From a virus (Duplodnaviria > Caudoviricetes): a DNA stretch of 44,724 bases. Positions 2,612 through 44,724 of this stretch are shown one piece after another (the first letter of the stretch is position 1; each line of letters begins with the position of its first letter). Below the pieces are notes generated by a model, which was given only the letters and a program-made list of their open reading frames with translations, was not told the DNA's origin and did no database searches. Made by a program: the position numbers and the translations under genes. The stretch covers positions 1 to 44,724 of the IMG/VR virus record IMGVR_UViG_3300048575_000518; one strand, 5' to 3'.

Positions 2612-3601
2612 TCACGAATCTGGCGACGCATCGCATGAGCGAAATTTGAGCTGAGCTTCAGATAACTCCTTTAGTCTTTCTGATTCGGGCGGCGCGGGCG
2701 GAGCGACGAATGCAGTCGCCCGGGGCTTTTTCTCCGGCTCGAAGATCCCCCGATCGGCTTCGCTCAGATTCTTCGCGGCGAGTTCGAAATAACTGCGCTT
2801 GAGTTCTGTGCCGATGAATCGCCGGCCCATACGAAGAGCCTCGTATCCTTCGCTCCCGATCCCTGCGAACGAAGAGAACACTACGTCCCCCGGGGAGCTC
2901 CAAAGACGCAAAAGCTTCGCGATGAGATCAAGCTGGAGAGGGACGATGTGGCGCTCATCGTCATTGTCGCGAGCTAATTTTCGATTGAGTGTGTTCGATT
3001 GCCTGATATCCATCCAGCAAGGATGCGCGAGATGCTGCCACTCACTCACTGGGAACTCTTCCGCCGTGTGCGAAATTGGCTTCGGATTCTCGCCCGGCTT
3101 TCGAAACGTCACGACATAGTCAGGGAGCCCCTGGCGTGAGAGCGATGAGTCTTTTTTGATTTGCTTCCAAAGAAGCCCGATTGCCTTTGTTCGCTGCATC
3201 TGAACGACGGGATCTTTTCCGACCGTGAGTTCGGAATGAAAAATAAATCCGCAGTCTTGAAAAAGACGCACGATCTCACCCCGAAAATCGCGAAGACCAA
3301 TTTGACCATGGATTTGTTTCGTGGTCGTGAGATTCATGACATGAACGCATACGAGTCGCCCGCTCGTGAGAATCCGGAACAACTCCAGGACGAGGAATTT
3401 AAAGCGAGTGAAGAACTCATCGAACGATCGCGAATTCCCCATGTCGCGATCAGAATTCGAATACGTGTAGAGCGATGCAAACGGTGGACTGAAGACCATG
3501 AAGTCAATGCTCTCGTCCGGCAGAGCCCTTGCGACATCAACGCAGTCCGCATTGTAAAGAGCGAAATTCTCCCCAAGAACTTGATCAAGAACCGTGATCA
3601 T
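2612..3601 (-). CDS. DNA N4-cytosine/N6-adenine methyltransferase (beta class)
   Basis: Motif IV FSPPF near the N terminus, H-x-x-P-LQ, motif I SFAGIGSEG late; ATGA-coupled start at 3601. Confidence 0.9.
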   Translation of the reverse strand: MITVLDQVLGENFALYNADCVDVARALPDESIDFMVFSPPFASLYTYSNSDRDMGNSRSFDEFFTRFKFLVLELFRILTSGRLVCVHVMNLTTTKQIHGQIGLRDFRGEIVRLFQDCGFIFHSELTVGKDPVVQMQRTKAIGLLWKQIKKDSSLSRQGLPDYVVTFRKPGENPKPISHTAEEFPVSEWQHLAHPCWMDIRQSNTLNRKLARDNDDERHIVPLQLDLIAKLLRLWSSPGDVVFSSFAGIGSEGYEALRMGRRFIGTELKRSYFELAAKNLSEADRGIFEPEKKPRATAFVAPPAPPESERLKELSEAQLKFRSCDASPDS

Positions 3602-3855
3602 TTGCATCCCCCGACAACAGCGATTCGAGCCACTCTCGCATCAACGATGCGCTTGATATCTCGTTTTAATTCGATAGCGAAAACAACGTTGAAGAGCTCG
3701 TAATAAACGTTCGATCGCAGAGGAAGCGCCCATCTCTTTACGCCAACGAATCTCTCAAGCCAGATCCAAACCGGCTTGGTCGCTTCGAGATCCGCATAAG
3801 CCCGCACAGGAAATAGCGCGAATCCGACGAAATATTCGTGTTCTTTTAATCTCAC
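3598..3855 (-). CDS. Hypothetical protein between helicase and methylase
   Basis: GTG start at 3855 behind GAGGGGTGGAG; stop coupled to the methylase start. Confidence 0.55.
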   Translation of the reverse strand: MRLKEHEYFVGFALFPVRAYADLEATKPVWIWLERFVGVKRWALPLRSNVYYELFNVVFAIELKRDIKRIVDARVARIAVVGGCK

Positions 3856-3865
3856 ACTCCACCCC

Positions 3866-5293
3866 TCAAACAGAAATTGAAGAAAGCCACGCCGGAAAAG
3901 CGATCGGAACCCTAGGATCATACGGTGATTTCTCCGCACGAAGCCCGCGCACACGGCGACTCATGAAGTCGCGCATATGCTCGACCATTTGACGAGACAT
4001 CTCCTCGGCCTGCGCTTCCTTGCGTTTGATATTCTCAAGCGTAGCGCCTTCGAGAACAGAGCTGATCAGATGAACGATGACCTCGCGATCTTGACCGAAT
4101 CGATAGCAACGCCGAATCGCCTGATACAAATCCTCGTATGAATCATTGAGTCCGACGAAAGCCATCTTGCGGCAGTGCTGCCAGTTGAGACCGAAACCCG
4201 TGATCGAAGGCTTCGTCACGATCCGGCCCTTGCTGCCTGATGTGAATGCCTCGATCCGCCGTTCTTTCTCCGCGAGCTTGAGAGATCCAAAGACCTCAAC
4301 CGCGCCCGGGATTGCAGCCGCGAGCTTCGATGACTCTTCGTTCAGGTTGCACCAGATGATCCATTCATCTTCGTCGCCATTCACGAGCTCGGCGCACTTT
4401 GCGACACGCTCGTCGATCGTCAATCGACGGGCCTCGAGTCTCTCACTCAGCGTTGACGCCGGAGTTTGAATCTTGTGACCGGTGAGCATCTTGTCGGTCG
4501 GGACCATGTGTTCGATGATCTCGAGCCCAGGGAGAATGTACCCCGCGTCATCGAACCCGAGATCGGACGGCTTCTTTACGACAACTGCCCACGTCGAAAG
4601 CCACTCCCAGAATCGCACGCGCCCATGACCTTTAAGTCTCCATTTCGACGTCTCCCCCGAGTCGTGGGTAAAGAACATCGCAAGCATCTCGTTCATATTC
4701 ATGACGCCGAGAAATTCCGCCTGGTTTCCGAGTTCCATATAGTCGTTCGGAGATGGCGTTGCCGTGCATGAAAGTTTATACGGGACAGATCGCGCGGCTG
4801 CGATAACTCGATTGCGCGTTTTCGAATCACGGTGCTTGATGATCGATGATTCATCGAGCACGACGCCAGAAAATGCACTGAGATCGAAATGCTCGAGCAT
4901 CTCGTAATTGGTGATCCAGATTCGACGAGCATTGACTTGAGCGCAGCCTGCGTCGAAATACTCTTGAATCTCGGACTGCGATCGAACATACCGAACATCA
5001 ATGCCAAGCTTCGCCGCCTCTTCGACCGTCTGTTGAGACACGCAAAGCGGGGCGACGATCAGAACGGGACCAACTCGCTGGGCGATTTGGTCTGCCCACG
5101 CGACTTGCATGAAGCTTTTCCCGAGCCCCGTATCGCAGAAGAGAGCCGCGCGCCCTCGGCGCAACGCCCACTGAACCAGTGCGCGCTGAAACGGAAACAG
5201 CGCCGCCGGGAGATCTATTTCGGAAATCTCAAATCCCGATTCAATATCGCGGAATGTTTTACGGTCTAAGAAGTTCGTGTAATCGACGCTCAT
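3866..5293 (-). CDS. SNF2-like superfamily 2 helicase
   Basis: Q motif LFPFQ, Walker A DTGLGKS, Walker B VLDESS, CTATP, GFGLNWQ, QAIRRCYRFGQ. Confidence 0.92.
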   Translation of the reverse strand: MSVDYTNFLDRKTFRDIESGFEISEIDLPAALFPFQRALVQWALRRGRAALFCDTGLGKSFMQVAWADQIAQRVGPVLIVAPLCVSQQTVEEAAKLGIDVRYVRSQSEIQEYFDAGCAQVNARRIWITNYEMLEHFDLSAFSGVVLDESSIIKHRDSKTRNRVIAAARSVPYKLSCTATPSPNDYMELGNQAEFLGVMNMNEMLAMFFTHDSGETSKWRLKGHGRVRFWEWLSTWAVVVKKPSDLGFDDAGYILPGLEIIEHMVPTDKMLTGHKIQTPASTLSERLEARRLTIDERVAKCAELVNGDEDEWIIWCNLNEESSKLAAAIPGAVEVFGSLKLAEKERRIEAFTSGSKGRIVTKPSITGFGLNWQHCRKMAFVGLNDSYEDLYQAIRRCYRFGQDREVIVHLISSVLEGATLENIKRKEAQAEEMSRQMVEHMRDFMSRRVRGLRAEKSPYDPRVPIAFPAWLSSISV

Positions 5294-33986: not shown

Positions 33987-34400
33987 TCAGTCGGAAGAGG
34001 CCAGGTCTAGCTCTGTAAATCGAGTGATCTCGATCTCGACCCGCGGATTCGAGCCAAATATCTTGCGACTCCCGTCGTGACCGTAAATGAGCTTGTCATT
34101 CTTGATAACGCCCATCTCCTGAAGAATATCCTCCGGCCCCTGGTAGAGATTCGATAAGTCCGCCTCGCTGCTGTGATTTAGGAAATAAAAGAGCATCTTG
34201 ATATTTACAGGAACGACGATTGTTCGCGCACCACGCATGGCTTGACGAATGTGCAGACTCGCCATCTCGGCCCAGTCCAGATAACGATCTGATGCCATCG
34301 TCACGGTCCTCTGTTTCGCGAAAGAATACCGCCGCTGCAAACTGTTCTTCTTGATCGCCACGCGCCCGGGGATTGTGCATTTGAAAAGGATTTCAGCCAT
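33987..34400 (-). CDS. rusA: RusA-family Holliday junction resolvase
   Basis: IPG...KKNS, ADLSNL...EDILQ...VIKNDK...NPRVEIEI. Confidence 0.85.
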   Translation of the reverse strand: MAEILFKCTIPGRVAIKKNSLQRRYSFAKQRTVTMASDRYLDWAEMASLHIRQAMRGARTIVVPVNIKMLFYFLNHSSEADLSNLYQGPEDILQEMGVIKNDKLIYGHDGSRKIFGSNPRVEIEITRFTELDLASSD

Positions 34401-39364: not shown

Positions 39365-39699
39365 GGTCGGCTCCCGTGCAGAGGGCAGCAATCGTAGTCT
39401 TCACAGCCACAACGCGGGCCGCGCTTGATGCCCTTGTCTTTGCGAGTCTTGCGGTGCTTCTTCTCGGAGATTTTGAGATCCTTTAGATGTTCGAACGCCG
39501 CCTCGGTCAGATGGAACATTCCGTATCCGGACTTGGGCTTACCGAGCGGACCGTAGAAATAACCAAGATCAACGAGACGCCGCATGTCCGCGTCGCCAAC
39601 TGATGTCACGTAATGACTGCGGTATCCGGGCTCGGAGGAGTCATATCCCCATGCGTGCTTGATCATGTGAATTTGTTTGTCTGATAAAACCTTAAGCAT
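39361..39699 (-). CDS. Hypothetical protein with NUMOD3-like motif and Cys tail
   Basis: RKTRKDKG; CGC...CCPLH. Confidence 0.6.
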   Translation of the reverse strand: MLKVLSDKQIHMIKHAWGYDSSEPGYRSHYVTSVGDADMRRLVDLGYFYGPLGKPKSGYGMFHLTEAAFEHLKDLKISEKKHRKTRKDKGIKRGPRCGCEDYDCCPLHGSRP

Positions 39700-41362
39700 T
39701 CAACACCTCCTTTGAATCGATAAACCTCTGAGCCAAAAGCCTGATGCGCGAATCGTCGGAATGCTGCGATTCAACGCTCGCGAACGGATCAAAGATCCCG
39801 GATGCCTGTGATGACTTGAGTCCAAGCAAATCGACGATGAGCGGATCGGACCCGCTATTTGAAACAAGATAAATGGACGTGACTTGATTCTTCTGACCGT
39901 CGCGATTCAATCGCCCGGTCACTTGCTCGTGAACACCGGGCGACCAGTCGAGTTCGCCGAAAACAACATAGGAGCATCGATCCTGAAGACCATTGAGACC
40001 CACGCCAGAGCGAAGCGACATGATCATGAGATCAGTCTTCCCCGACATGAAATCCTTGCGAGACTTCTCTTTCTCGACTTGTGATTCGGAGCCCGTGTAG
40101 AGTACGGGCTTGAATTCTGCGAGTTCCTTAAGCCAAATTTCATAAACGTCGCGATGCCATCCGACAAGAAGGACCGGCTCCCCGCTCTCAAGAAGAATGC
40201 GAACATACTCCGCGACGAATGGCGCTTTCGAGACGCCGGTCGCGTGCCTCACCATCATGTCGAGTTCACGCGCAGCTTGGCCGCGCTCGATGAATGACCC
40301 TTGCATGACGCGAATCGCGAGAAGCTTTGCTGTCCGCTCCATGTCTTCAATCGCGGCCTCGTCATAATCGACCGTGTGAACGATCTTATTGACCTCCGGA
40401 AGCTCCATCGCGACGTCTTTTCGAGTTCGGCGAAGCATGAGAAAATTCGAGCGGAGGTATGAGCCGAGGGCCTTTGGATTTGATACTTCTCGGTTGCCGC
40501 CGCCACACCATTCGCGGAGAAATTCCCACTTCTTATCAAGACACCCAGGCTTAATCAGGTCGAGGATGTTGAAACTCTCATCCCCGTAGTTGTAGACCGG
40601 CGTTGCCGAAAGTCCGAGGCAGTAGTCAACACGCTCGGAAATCTTGCGGCTTGCCTGATGCTTTGCCGACTCTTCACGTCGAAGCTCTTGGATTTCATCG
40701 AATACGACCGAACGAATCGGGCTCGACGAATTTGAGAAATAATCAACCCATCCGGTGACGAGCGAGTACTTCATTATATAGATGTCGGCCACGGGGAGCG
40801 GATACGGCTTTCTACCCTTGATCACGTGAGTGCGGAGGTCGGTGTATTTCTCGATCTCGTCGCGCCATTGAAAAGCAAGGTGCGTCTGAACAACGACGAG
40901 CGCCGGGAGGGCGTCGGTGTTCGCAAACGTGCCGATCGCCGATACCGTTTTTCCGAGACCGACGGTGTCGGCGAGAAGGTACCGGCGCACGCGGTTATGA
41001 AGCTCGACCGCTTGATGTTGGTACGGGCGCAGGGCCTTGCCTTCTTTGAATGTCACAAGCGGCGGTTGATATCCCCCGGAGAATATATTCTCAAGTTCGT
41101 CGCGCTGACGGCGATAAAGGCTCGCCAAGCGATCAAGCTCGGCCGCGACATCGGCGGGGACGCGAAATGGAAAGCGAATAAAAAACCAACGAAGATCCTC
41201 GGCCGTCTCGGGAGTCGCGACCACGAAAAATGGACTCGTCTCAGATCGGTGGATCGACTTAAAAAGATCTTTGAGTCTGATGCAAACATGTGGTTCGACG
41301 TCGGCAAGCATCCACATTGGGCGATCTTTCTGACAGATCGAAATGGCTCCGAATGTCTTCAT
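39692..41362 (-). CDS. SNF2-family helicase
   Basis: LRPYQ, DTVGLGKT, FDEIQ, LSATP, GVGLNG, QVTGRLNRDGQ. Confidence 0.92.
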   Translation of the reverse strand: MKTFGAISICQKDRPMWMLADVEPHVCIRLKDLFKSIHRSETSPFFVVATPETAEDLRWFFIRFPFRVPADVAAELDRLASLYRRQRDELENIFSGGYQPPLVTFKEGKALRPYQHQAVELHNRVRRYLLADTVGLGKTVSAIGTFANTDALPALVVVQTHLAFQWRDEIEKYTDLRTHVIKGRKPYPLPVADIYIMKYSLVTGWVDYFSNSSSPIRSVVFDEIQELRREESAKHQASRKISERVDYCLGLSATPVYNYGDESFNILDLIKPGCLDKKWEFLREWCGGGNREVSNPKALGSYLRSNFLMLRRTRKDVAMELPEVNKIVHTVDYDEAAIEDMERTAKLLAIRVMQGSFIERGQAARELDMMVRHATGVSKAPFVAEYVRILLESGEPVLLVGWHRDVYEIWLKELAEFKPVLYTGSESQVEKEKSRKDFMSGKTDLMIMSLRSGVGLNGLQDRCSYVVFGELDWSPGVHEQVTGRLNRDGQKNQVTSIYLVSNSGSDPLIVDLLGLKSSQASGIFDPFASVESQHSDDSRIRLLAQRFIDSKEVLNA

Positions 41363-41706
41363 AGCCATGCCCTCCCAAGATTCACGACCCAACACGGCTT
41401 GCCGTTGAGGCTGGCCGGGAATCCCATGGACCGATTCGTTACGATGATCAGGGATTTGACCTGATCCAACTTTGCATACCGTTCGCATTGACGCAGTATT
41501 TCGCGTGCCGAACCCTTGATCTTCACTTCAATGCCGATGCCGTCGTCGGTTAGAAAATCGATGATCGATCGATCATCGAGTCGTGCCTCGCGCTCAATCG
41601 AAACGATCGGATCAAGCGCCTCAAAGATTTGACGCTGCAATTCCTTTTCATTCTCTAGCGAGAAGCGACGGGAACTCAGAGCGTTCATGAGCTGGTCGGC
41701 GCTCAT
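41359..41706 (-). CDS. PD-(D/E)xK nuclease-like protein
   Basis: EKELQ...IDFL...GIEVK...Q-x-x-RY; coupled to the helicase. Confidence 0.7.
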   Translation of the reverse strand: MSADQLMNALSSRRFSLENEKELQRQIFEALDPIVSIEREARLDDRSIIDFLTDDGIGIEVKIKGSAREILRQCERYAKLDQVKSLIIVTNRSMGFPASLNGKPCWVVNLGRAWL

Positions 41707-42548: not shown

Positions 42549-42856
42549 TAATGCATCCCTTCCCGATTCGGATATTCAAAAGTCATCTCTTCGTTGAGCA
42601 CGCGTTCGACACGCAGCCACCACGCCTTAATGCAGGCCACTTTCATTGAGTCGAAATCAAGGTCTCGCCAATTCGACGGGAGCTTGATGCCATCCTGTTC
42701 GGCGCCCATGAGAAAGCCGGTACAGCGATCGATAGAATTGAGATGCGGAAGAATCTTCTCCAGGCGCTCCGCGGCCATCTCCAAAACTTGGGTGACTTTG
42801 TGTTGCGGAATATCTTTGCGAATGCTGATTTCAAACTTAGCCATTACCGTCGTCAT
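42548..42856 (-). CDS. Hypothetical protein
   Basis: Coupled at both ends. Confidence 0.6.
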   Translation of the reverse strand: MTTVMAKFEISIRKDIPQHKVTQVLEMAAERLEKILPHLNSIDRCTGFLMGAEQDGIKLPSNWRDLDFDSMKVACIKAWWLRVERVLNEEMTFEYPNREGMH

Positions 42857-43389
42857 TCATCCCCCACGAGTTCACAGTCTTCGATTGCGGCCACAAACAG
42901 CGCGGCCGATCCGGCATAGTCGCCGGCTGCGTATCGTTCCTTCGCGCGCGCCATTATCCGCGCCGCGATCGATTCGGACTGATCAACGCCATCTCCCGGT
43001 TCTGATGGTTCTTTGGGGGATAGGTTCTTCGAGATTGTCTGCGCGGCCCACTCGGATGGCGTTATCTTCAACATCGGTCCTGGTTCATTCGTCCATGAAA
43101 CGAATTTCGGCCACTGATCACCGTGCTCTTCACGTAGTTCGCGAATTTCGTCGCATACCGAGATCTTAAATTCGAGTCTCCACCCGAACTTACGAAACGG
43201 AATAAATCCGGCGCGGCGCCATTCGCGAATTCGCCAAATGGGCACGCCGATCTTGTCGGCGGCGTCTTCGATGATGAGCCACTCAGAAGGCTCTTCACTG
43301 AACGTTTCGCGGATCTTCTCCGCACTCCCCCTGATCGACTTGATAATTGAACCCGGCAGGTCGATTGCCTGCTCATTCGCGCGCGCCAC
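42853..43389 (-). CDS. MerR/excisionase-like HTH protein
   Basis: WLIIEDAADKIGVPIWRIREWRRAGFIPFRKFG. Confidence 0.65.
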   Translation of the reverse strand: MARANEQAIDLPGSIIKSIRGSAEKIRETFSEEPSEWLIIEDAADKIGVPIWRIREWRRAGFIPFRKFGWRLEFKISVCDEIRELREEHGDQWPKFVSWTNEPGPMLKITPSEWAAQTISKNLSPKEPSEPGDGVDQSESIAARIMARAKERYAAGDYAGSAALFVAAIEDCELVGDE

Positions 43390-44140
43390 TTATGCCCCCT
43401 TCTCCATTTCCTTCGATTCCGATAAGCCGTCGGAACGCTTCCCTTGCTGCGATCGGAACCACTGCATTGCCCAGGCATCTAATACGGTGTGTTTTGGGTC
43501 GTATCCCATCATCCATTCGACAAACGACGGATGGAGACTGATGCCAAATGTGAGCTTGAAATACTGAGAGAGAGGAATCCCTCTGCGATCCTCGAGGTTC
43601 TTCTTCCTCGATCTGCTCGCTCCAGGACTCTTGAAGTCCCTCGCGCATGGAGTGGGCAAGTAGCCACCATCTCTCGCGCAAGTGTGGGGCTCCAAGCTCG
43701 CCGGCTGAAACAATCGTCCACCGACAGTTATACCCCAGCGCAGTGAACTCCAAGAGAACGCGTTCAAGTCCTCGAAGAGTGATAGCTGGGACGTTTTCCA
43801 AGAAAACGAAGCTTGGTCGAAGCTCGCGAGTGAGGCGGACGACTTCAAAGAAAAGCGCGCTTCGCTTTCCATCCAGGCCTTTCGCATCCTTCTTAGCAAT
43901 GCTGATGTCCTGGCATGGAAAGCCGCCAAAGATGATGCTTGGCTTTGTGGCGAAGTGTTCGCTGCGCAGCTCTCGCACGTCTGTGAAGATTGGCGCTCGA
44001 TCAAGAGAACCGTCCCGCATCCTGGACAACAGAACACCTTGTGCGTATTCGTCTTGTTCGCAATAGGCGATCGTTCGAACCCATGGCGCGAGAGCAATAC
44101 TGATCCCGCCGATTCCGCTAAATAAGTCCAAGCCATTCAC
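43373..44140 (-). CDS. DNA (cytosine-5) methyltransferase, main (alpha-like) chain
   Basis: Motif I LFSGIGG, IV GGFPCQ, VI LENV, VIII RERWW, X RCLGNAV; no motif IX. Confidence 0.92.
   Translation of the reverse strand: MNGLDLFSGIGGISIALAPWVRTIAYCEQDEYAQGVLLSRMRDGSLDRAPIFTDVRELRSEHFATKPSIIFGGFPCQDISIAKKDAKGLDGKRSALFFEVVRLTRELRPSFVFLENVPAITLRGLERVLLEFTALGYNCRWTIVSAGELGAPHLRERWWLLAHSMREGLQESWSEQIEEEEPRGSQRDSSLSVFQAHIWHQSPSVVCRMDDGIRPKTHRIRCLGNAVVPIAAREAFRRLIGIEGNGEGGISGARE
43390..44136 (-). CDS. Nested out-of-frame ORF, candidate methyltransferase beta chain
   Basis: 248 aa open across the methylase in the +1 frame; carries LPTPCARDFK and LHPSFVEWMMGY (motif IX-like). Confidence 0.7.
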   Translation of the reverse strand: MAWTYLAESAGSVLLSRHGFERSPIANKTNTHKVFCCPGCGTVLLIERQSSQTCESCAANTSPQSQASSLAAFHARTSALLRRMRKAWMESEARFSLKSSASLASFDQASFSWKTSQLSLFEDLNAFSWSSLRWGITVGGRLFQPASLEPHTCARDGGYLPTPCARDFKSPGASRSRKKNLEDRRGIPLSQYFKLTFGISLHPSFVEWMMGYDPKHTVLDAWAMQWFRSQQGKRSDGLSESKEMEKGA

Positions 44141-44724
44141 GCATCCCCCTTCGCGGGGGGCGACTGCCGTTTCAGGAGGCCGGCTTGAAATACGGCTCGC
44201 GTAGTGATGTTCAAGATTAACTGCTTTGCTTTTTGAACATATTCTGCGCGAATTACATGATCGGCCTTTCCGTTTTTAACCAGACCCCTGAGCCAGTCGA
44301 CCTCACCCGCGAGTTGCTCGTAATTCACAACAGCAATCGAATTGAATTCCCTTCGAACCCACTCGGGCACCTTCGGCGCATTGACAATCATCGCGGTGTA
44401 GTAGGAGTCGACTGAACGAATGGCAGCATCGTCGGTCGGATATTCGACCAACAAGTTTTGAACTACCGGATGCGCCGCTGCCTCTCTTGCCGCGGCATCA
44501 ATCGATTTCTTGCGCTCGGTCTCGGCGAATTCGCGAAACAGGCTCACTTTCGGCGGATATTCTGGTTTGTTTTCGCCGATCAATGTCTCGACTACGCGGC
44601 GAAATTGGCTCGGCGATAAATCATGCACAGCCCCCCATACGAGTTGAAGTTTCGGCGTCGGGTAATTGTTCTCGCCGAACATCTCGAGAAACGGACGCAT
44701 GATCGCGTTGAATTCTTGACGCAT
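44137..44724 (-). CDS. Replication-associated protein, helicase loader/inhibitor-like (may be 5'-truncated by the window)
   Basis: W...DL...F...YPPKVSLFRE resembles G39P/lambda P-like N-terminal domains; position. Confidence 0.45.
   Translation of the reverse strand: MRQEFNAIMRPFLEMFGENNYPTPKLQLVWGAVHDLSPSQFRRVVETLIGENKPEYPPKVSLFREFAETERKKSIDAAAREAAAHPVVQNLLVEYPTDDAAIRSVDSYYTAMIVNAPKVPEWVRREFNSIAVVNYEQLAGEVDWLRGLVKNGKADHVIRAEYVQKAKQLILNITTRAVFQAGLLKRQSPPAKGDA

Follow-up and report, generated by a model that had tools for sequence, protein, structure and literature searches.

Two overlapping reading frames of a phage cytosine methyltransferase gene probably encode the two chains of one enzyme

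Does the long open frame that lies inside a phage cytosine methyltransferase gene encode a protein in its own right and, if so, what does that protein contribute to the enzyme? The question is raised by a 44,724-nucleotide stretch of viral DNA (hereafter the window), a lambda-like temperate phage with integrase, repressor-like helix-turn-helix, terminase, portal, head protease-capsid and tape measure genes. A preliminary description had proposed that its cytosine methylase is split across two reading frames, the second starting 4 nt after the first (GTGA-ATG) and staying open for 248 codons across nearly the whole gene. Both frames, here called alpha and beta, were found; they are offset by one base and overlap by 747 nt (Table 1). 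We consider it likely that their products form a single alpha/beta C5 cytosine methyltransferase, a reading in which we include sequence recognition by beta, shared initiation of the two chains and an anti-restriction role.

Table 1. Positions of the two nested genes, their neighbours and their proposed functional segments in the window
Feature	Position	Strand	Remarks
Alpha chain, 255 aa, GTG start	43373..44140	-	C5 cytosine methyltransferase large domain (I-VIII), poorly conserved loop, motif X
Beta chain, 248 aa, ATG start	43390..44136	-	+1 frame, fully nested in alpha
GTGAATG	44134..44140	-	alpha GTG, TGA of the upstream gene and beta ATG within seven bases
Shine-Dalgarno-like AAGGGGGA	44144..44151	-	3 nt 5' of alpha GTG, 7 nt 5' of beta ATG
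Upstream ORF, 195 aa, no assigned function	44137..44724	-	beta's frame; TGA abuts beta ATG
Downstream ORF, 178 aa, helix-turn-helix/excisionase-like	42853..43389	-	beta's frame; phrog_66, E 1.1e-4
Alpha motif I, LFSGIGG	44125-44105	-	
Alpha motif IV, GFPCQDIS	43924-43901	-	
Alpha motif VI, FLENVPAI	43804-43781	-	
Alpha motif VIII, PHLRERWWLLA	43687-43655	-	
Alpha motif X, LGNAVV	43457..43474	-	alpha residues 223-228; overlapped by selected beta W226/F227
Beta 1-102, extension absent from M.EcoHK31I beta	43831..44136	-	selected blocks 1-30 (MAWxY) and 78-99; putative clamp on alpha
Beta CCPGC...CESC, proposed zinc site	43966..44031 (CCPGC 44031-44017; CESC 43977-43966)	-	not conserved in the family
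Beta 103-159 (FSWKTSQ...WGITVGG)	43660..43830	-	in register with the association-affecting part of M.EcoHK31I beta
Beta 160-200 (LPTPCARDFKSPG...), putative target-recognition module	43537..43659	-	one copy here, 1-5 in relatives; recognition putative
Beta LPTPCARDFK	43659-43630	-	
Beta motif IX, LHPSFVEWMMGYDPKHT	43486..43536	-	two-step profile comparison; alpha Gly212 codon GGG in 34/34 loci
Beta LHPSFVEWMMGY	43536-43501	-	

Alpha is likely to be the catalytic chain of a C5 cytosine methyltransferase from which motif IX is missing. It carries motifs I, IV (with its PC), VI (ENV), VIII (RxR) and X, as the preliminary description had it, has a Rossmann-type large domain, and belongs to a PHROG family, phrog_363, labelled DNA methyltransferase. 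Its match to PF00145 (E 9e-35) is limited to residues 1-172, and motif IX and a variable region are not found in the same chain as the catalytic motifs. The structural model has a pLDDT of 80.3, falling to near 50 in a loop at about residues 170-220, and its best fold match is M.HhaI (E 2.6e-14, 169 columns). M.HhaI and M.HaeIII, both PF00145 enzymes, have in common with the window alpha's fold and motifs and the motif IX spacing L-H-P-x6-M-G-Y, but each is a single chain with the small domain in frame between motifs VIII and X, whereas the enzyme of the window is split.

Beta is less easily placed by direct searches. It matches phrog_1008, labelled 'DNA methyltransferase' (E 1.4e-14), and gave no significant match to Pfam or NCBIfam, so that the suggested check of both frames against PF00145 succeeded for alpha (residues 1-172) and not for beta. 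Modelled alone it folds poorly (pLDDT 61.3, pTM 0.33); Foldseek returned no match to the model, searches of PDB sequences with beta and with its profile returned nothing meaningful, and its matches in the ESM Atlas are mostly to viral clusters. The openness of the +1 frame in the window alone has a probability of 0.018 given the alpha protein (100,000 synonymous recodings) and of 3.5e-4 under codon shuffling, and the longest +1 open runs in 16 other genes of the window extend over 43-181 codons. Such openness is only moderately unlikely, and it is therefore the homologues that decide whether beta is real. A search with beta found 134 homologues among 651 candidates, many of them full length at 50-62% identity and the best at 62% over 97% of the length. 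Scanning viral contigs with the single beta sequence gave no match; a profile scan of viral contigs did, and in all 53 viral loci recovered with the beta profile, beta lies in the +1 frame of an alpha. Of the loci recovered through alpha, 72 of 80 from genomes and 38 of 51 viral ones have a +1 frame that runs without a stop almost as far as motif X, the viral exceptions being mostly single-chain or conventional enzymes or copies with inserts after beta's stop.

For quantitative tests we used 39 close loci (41 chosen at first, namely L001-L027, L056-L068 and the window, less the truncated L024 and the duplicate L058); 13 of the first-chosen 41 had been recovered through beta, and 26 of the 39 through alpha. 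In the 26 alpha-selected homologues, alpha codons 2-165 contain 8 stops in the +1 frame where flank codon usage predicts 201.0, and codons 31-120 contain none against 99.6 expected; seven of the eight stops fall within codons 2-30. Stops in the +1 frame of close homologues had been named beforehand as the observation to look for against the two-frame proposal, which stands after this count. Synonymous change in alpha is suppressed as well: the four-fold sites fixed by beta include Gly136 and Gly212 (GGG in 34/34 loci each), Arg93 (CGA in 33/36) and Ala162 (GCC in 33/38). Of 206 beta sites, 83 reach z >= 4, and 48 do so when only the 26 alpha-selected loci are taken; the null mean is 0.11, and the shared ancestry of the homologues inflates the z values. 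Only 3 of 30 sites in beta 31-60 reach that threshold, from which it follows that free sites have largely decayed. Besides flank codon usage, controls were the other genes of the window and alpha 31-60, a weakly constrained stretch with a four-fold identity of 0.33 (0.25 would mean saturation). These codon patterns show purifying selection on beta over most of its length. We give next to no credence to the opposite reading, in which the +1 ORF goes untranslated and only mirrors the constraints on alpha: the window-alone probability of 0.018 is indeed not extreme, and alpha dictates some of the residues that are invariant in beta (Trp141 imposes G140; Met41 imposes C or W at position 40), but the deficit of stops, the fixed synonymous codons, the switch in wobble positions and the motif IX homology described below, and the twin starts all speak against it, and it was rejected. 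The overlap, the stops in homologues, the fixed codons and the wobble switch likewise agree with the roughly 750 bp of dual coding that had been proposed.

Because beta has no direct match to PF00145, the assignment of motif IX rests on a two-step comparison. The beta profile over residues 199-221 matches motif IX in a profile built from 11 relatives that are single chains (hhalign E 6e-8, probability 94.7), and this second profile aligns to M.HhaI 268-318, KLHPRECARVMGYP; side by side, beta has LHPSFVEWMMGY where M.HhaI has LHPRECARVMGY. The comparison shows that motif IX is encoded in beta, in the +1 frame as the preliminary description had suggested. The same description had also placed the specificity region in this frame. 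Here the evidence comes from the window, L056 and L057, which share one type of module. Over beta 61-158 it is alpha's third codon position that varies (0.55 against 0.78 and 0.74), whereas over beta 159-219 it is beta's (0.52 against 0.80 and 0.80), and protein identity over the latter stretch is 74% for beta and 48% for alpha; over 220-235 alpha is again the better conserved protein (77% against 50%). The switch is also seen across all 37 full-length betas. Between motifs VIII and X, then, these patterns show alpha to be the less constrained of the two frames, which supports a specificity region in the +1 frame with a putative role in recognition. Betas with more PTP-type modules (a rough pattern counts 0-5) tend to go with longer alpha loops (Spearman 0.64, n=119), and the loop varies freely in length, with inserts of more than 100 codons in relatives. 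The PTPxARD module of beta presumably resembles the T-L recognition motif. On the strength of this likeness, of the position of the module and of the selection acting on it, we infer that beta is the recognition chain and carries the target-recognition domain, the alpha loop being filler.

Two alternatives bear on this part of the gene. In the first, beta gives motif IX and scaffolding only and alpha's loop recognises the sequence. This is the layout published for M.EcoHK31I, as far as the available text of the two reports goes (PMC2836561, PMC3404938), and some residues of alpha 195-222 are shared among the closest relatives of the window. Against it, the constrained frame between motifs VIII and X is beta's, the loop is free in length, tolerates inserts of more than 100 codons and has a pLDDT near 50, and the shared alpha residues are a shifted reading of beta's motif IX; we regard it as unlikely. 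In the second alternative, two programmed shifts of frame yield a single polypeptide: ribosomes would move +1 past motif VIII to read the module and motif IX, then -1 to return to motif X. A slippery-type CCCAAAA does lie just after motif IX in the window and in-frame single-chain relatives exist, but the heptamer is present in only 7 of 33 loci, the spacing from IX to X is 9 codons in 29 of 33 loci compared with about 16-17 residues in single chains, and beta has its own conserved start, and selection acts on it not only upstream of motif VIII but also beyond motif X (W226, F227). We therefore rejected this highly improbable scheme on the heptamer count, the 9-codon gap and the selection past motif X.

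Assembly of a C5 methyltransferase from nested genes has a precedent in M.EcoHK31I, the alpha/beta enzyme reportedly described by Lee, Kam and Shaw in 1995. According to the available portions of two reports, this E. coli enzyme (YGGCCR) has motifs I-VIII, a TRD and motif X on alpha and motif IX on a nested beta (PMC2836561, PMC3404938), and the accessible text of one adds that activity needs both chains, alpha having lost all activity when the beta starts were removed, and that N-terminal deletions of beta weaken the alpha/beta association (PMC2836561). As a stand-in we used a near-identical gene, L191, located by a published primer that matches 81 of 5,426 E. coli genomes and no plasmid. The M.EcoHK31I gene and the window have in common an alpha with motifs I-VIII plus X, along with a nested +1 beta carrying motif IX; in the window beta lies wholly inside alpha in another frame, with IX on beta and X on alpha. 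By eye, SGMAFRGEY of M.EcoHK31I beta is in the same register as WGITVGGRL of the window, and both genes use GGG for the same alpha glycine. The differences are nonetheless considerable. Beta of L191 has 176 aa and begins at alpha codon 104, whereas that of the window has 248 aa and begins 4 nt after the alpha start; motif IX is of the type RRMLPSEYERLQGF in the one and LHPSFVEWMMGY in the other; and the TRD published for M.EcoHK31I, in the text available, is on alpha, with no PTP module in beta, whereas the putative module of the window is on beta, no TRD of the published type being apparent from the sequence of its alpha, where the constraint between VIII and X falls on beta's frame. The alphas are 29% identical over 195 aa, the betas align at motif IX only (E 0.022), L191 beta has no match to phrog_1008 at E 0.01, and the two enzymes fall on separate branches (SH-like 99). 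Orthology was rejected on these grounds. The suggestion of a phage version of M.EcoHK31I thus holds for the nested two-chain design, and fails if taken to mean simply a phage copy; judged by sequence and by analogy, the methylase of the window likely works like M.EcoHK31I yet represents a separate branch.

The precedent also bears on a further alternative, in which beta is real but accessory: alpha alone would be a minimal methylase of relaxed specificity that beta stabilises or regulates. A long open +1 ORF is indeed kept in single-chain relatives with an in-frame motif IX (L035, L036, L037, L040, L041, L044 and L046), which implies that part of beta has a job apart from motif IX. Against this stand the absence of motif IX and of a constrained variable region from alpha and, in the part of the report at hand, the inactivity of M.EcoHK31I alpha once the beta starts are removed (PMC2836561), and we find an accessory role decidedly unlikely. 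Our preference for two chains that work together rests on this need for both chains in the precedent, together with the stops, the codons, the wobble switch, motif IX and the twin starts.

Ahead of the module, beta has a long N-terminal extension. Its proposal by the preliminary description is borne out by selected sites at 12 of 30 positions in beta 1-30 and 15 of 40 in beta 61-102, which argue that the extension is real, and W88 is invariant in all 79 homologues. The zinc site that had been suggested within it fared differently. Only 19 of the 79 beta homologues have all four cysteines together, and alpha Met41, which limits beta position 40 to C, W or a stop, accounts in full for C40 (24 observed, 24.0 expected); C37, C54 and C57 are enriched over expectation. 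Matches of beta homologues to zinc families of Pfam are weak, with 1-2 of 79 members each at best. We rejected the site as a feature of the family, and it is possible that a subgroup of betas has one.

Production of both chains would begin at twin starts. In 36 of the 39 close loci the starts of the two frames lie at most 7 nt apart, at offsets of +4 (15 loci), +7 (14), -2 (4) and -5 (3), and 51 of 77 evaluable genome loci have twin starts with at least 100 open codons, compared with a background of 34 in 423 ORFs (8%) and 3 of 34 genes of the window; the count took the nearest candidate pair, which favours matches. In L008 and L015 the frame opened by the nearest beta start soon ends at a stop, after which there is a new MWLY start, and a beta start of the form M-(x)-W-I/L-Y/F reappears at shifted positions after loss of the usual one in these two loci and in L001, L006, L011, L017 and L018. 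The accessible part of one study has a single Shine-Dalgarno sequence starting two frames at AUGUG or GUGUG (PMC9841429); that is the -2 geometry, seen here in four loci, whereas the window has +4. We infer that AAGGGGGA, at a short spacing from the alpha GTG, is a ribosome-binding site common to both chains, and a shared start is probable.

Taken together, we propose that the catalytic body is alpha's and predict that motif IX and the target-recognition module come from beta. One ribosome-binding site would start both chains, with further coupling to the upstream stop, and such shared initiation would balance their amounts. The N-terminal arm and middle segment of beta would grip alpha, and from its PTPxARD module and motif IX the small domain, which reads the major groove, would be reconstituted; more than one specificity would be expected of relatives that have several modules. 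As an orphan methylase, the enzyme likely shields phage DNA from restriction by the host. The M.EcoHK31I gene adjoins a NotI-family endonuclease gene, whereas the window methylase is an orphan in a phage: searches of Pfam, PHROG and NCBIfam found no cognate endonuclease adjoining it, as a Type II restriction-modification system would have, the neighbours being an unassigned ORF and a helix-turn-helix ORF. The most depleted k-mer in the window is GGCC (z -4.0), a depletion that cannot name the target. Two further comparisons help to place the proposed enzyme. M.AquI (CYCGRG) is a two-polypeptide C5 methyltransferase (PMC3404938) and, in the text available, is similar in that its second chain bears part of the variable region and motif IX; its motif X goes with the small chain, whereas that of the window stays on alpha, which means that the genes must be nested. 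M.SPRI and M.phi3TI are multispecific single-chain phage C5 methyltransferases with tandem TRDs. Compared by description only, they are like the relatives of the window in having tandem modules in variable number ahead of motif IX, and differ from the window in being single chains, its beta having one module.

How far does the design extend? With E cut-offs of 1e-3, 1e-10 and 1e-30, a profile of 79 betas matches 31,152, 14,997 and 2,939 representatives, respectively, the representatives being clustered at 50% identity and some possibly being single-chain or partial matches. A FastTree phylogeny of 173 alpha cores (19 duplicate, truncated or frameshifted loci left out; unclassified rows labelled split by default; outgroup not clean) places the M.EcoHK31I group apart from the branch of 165 rows that contains the window (SH-like 99). 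Within the latter, five single-chain enzymes nest beside phage Lily, a placement that suggests re-fusion of split enzymes into single chains. The putatively two-chain phage family is a variant on the M.EcoHK31I-type design, of which partial earlier traces exist: both frames have PHROG families (phrog_363 and phrog_1008), as labels only, and gp63 of phage Lily, annotated 'g62 internal gene', matches phrog_1008 (E 5.8e-44). In the records of Synechococcus S-H1 and Vibrio 1.003.O alpha alone is annotated though the +1 ORF is present. Our literature search, with subscription journals, REBASE and bioRxiv supplements outside it, found no description of the phage family as a two-chain enzyme, and the available portions of PMC2884959, PMC6070908, PMC12707154, PMC11855218 and PMC9957025 do not mention a nested beta chain. 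Likewise, the idea that the Aeromonas ARM81 phage methylase is a described heterodimer was not borne out in the accessible text of PMC5537653 and PMC7556043.

A broader reading, which we offer tentatively and hold to be somewhat doubtful, is that of a large phage family in which an interchangeable second chain, started together with the catalytic one from a single ribosome-binding site, bears the whole specificity half: modules would be gained and lost in beta's frame, alpha would read across them as filler, re-targeting or multispecificity would come about by beta alone, even that of a co-resident phage, and reversion to a single chain would have happened more than once. The available literature treats M.EcoHK31I as one of a pair of exceptions to the single-chain architecture of C5 methyltransferases; the related two-frame design spans a family with 14,997 beta-profile representatives at E up to 1e-10, and annotation usually records one frame only. 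If the two-chain reading is true, the specificity-setting half is missing from many phage 'Dcm' annotations, alpha clones recoded for expression would be inactive, and specificity must be read from the other frame. The locus would also offer a natural example in which about 750 bp are fully dual coding, ownership alternates between the frames and the start is probably shared; it would, moreover, provide natural split methylases, a class used in targeted methylation according to the accessible part of PMC2836561.

Variant forms occur on both sides of the tree. Eight single-chain loci (L034, L035, L036, L037, L039, L040, L041 and L106) have an LNP-type motif IX in frame and beta-like +1 sequence over motifs IV-VIII; five of them are those that nest beside phage Lily. 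The M.EcoHK31I side is mixed (L044-L047, L110 and L191), with motif IX in alpha and a long open +1 ORF in L044, L046 and L110 and motif IX in the +1 frame in L047 and L191. Single beta-frame stops interrupt L005 and L141. Frameshifted forms are found in L114, L120 and L052; these and P0029 are frameshifted or deleted copies that join the front of alpha to the back of beta and may be pseudogenes or assembly errors, and in mycobacteriophage Seabastian the 'DNA methylase' genes 75 and 76 correspond to alpha's front and beta's back. Three Bacteroidota assemblies (L145, L150 and L163) share a break in beta some 45 codons beyond the catalytic PC, shortly followed by a new Met; the part behind the break corresponds in extent to M.EcoHK31I beta, and the three are possibly a three-chain form. 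L026 (3384-3863) and L059 (2278-2592) contain HNH-endonuclease-like ORFs (phrog_1271, E 9e-13; phrog_2340, E 3e-6) that start right after the beta stop in the +1 frame, inside the open alpha and before motif X, so that three genes share one stretch; the ShiLan domain, with its out-of-frame HNH as given in the available text of PMC11855218, is a comparable case. An insert in the corresponding position of L017 contains no HNH-like ORF.

In the window itself, positions 42853-44724 form three gapless ORFs in one frame (195 aa, TGA-ATG, beta, TAA-GTG, 178 aa); the abutment of the downstream GTG on the beta TAA is not conserved in relatives. A second DNA methylase, of the N6/N4 type (PF01555), adjoins a helicase-like gene (2612-3607, 3866-5293). 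A second SNF2-type helicase lies near the C5 methylase (39692-41488), and a weak PD-(D/E)XK-like ORF (41775-41359) adjoins the SNF2 helicase. Finally, the early region encodes RNase H (PF00075; 34596-35063), a T7 gp5.9-like RecBCD inhibitor domain (PF25708; 36573-36923) and RusA (33987-34400).
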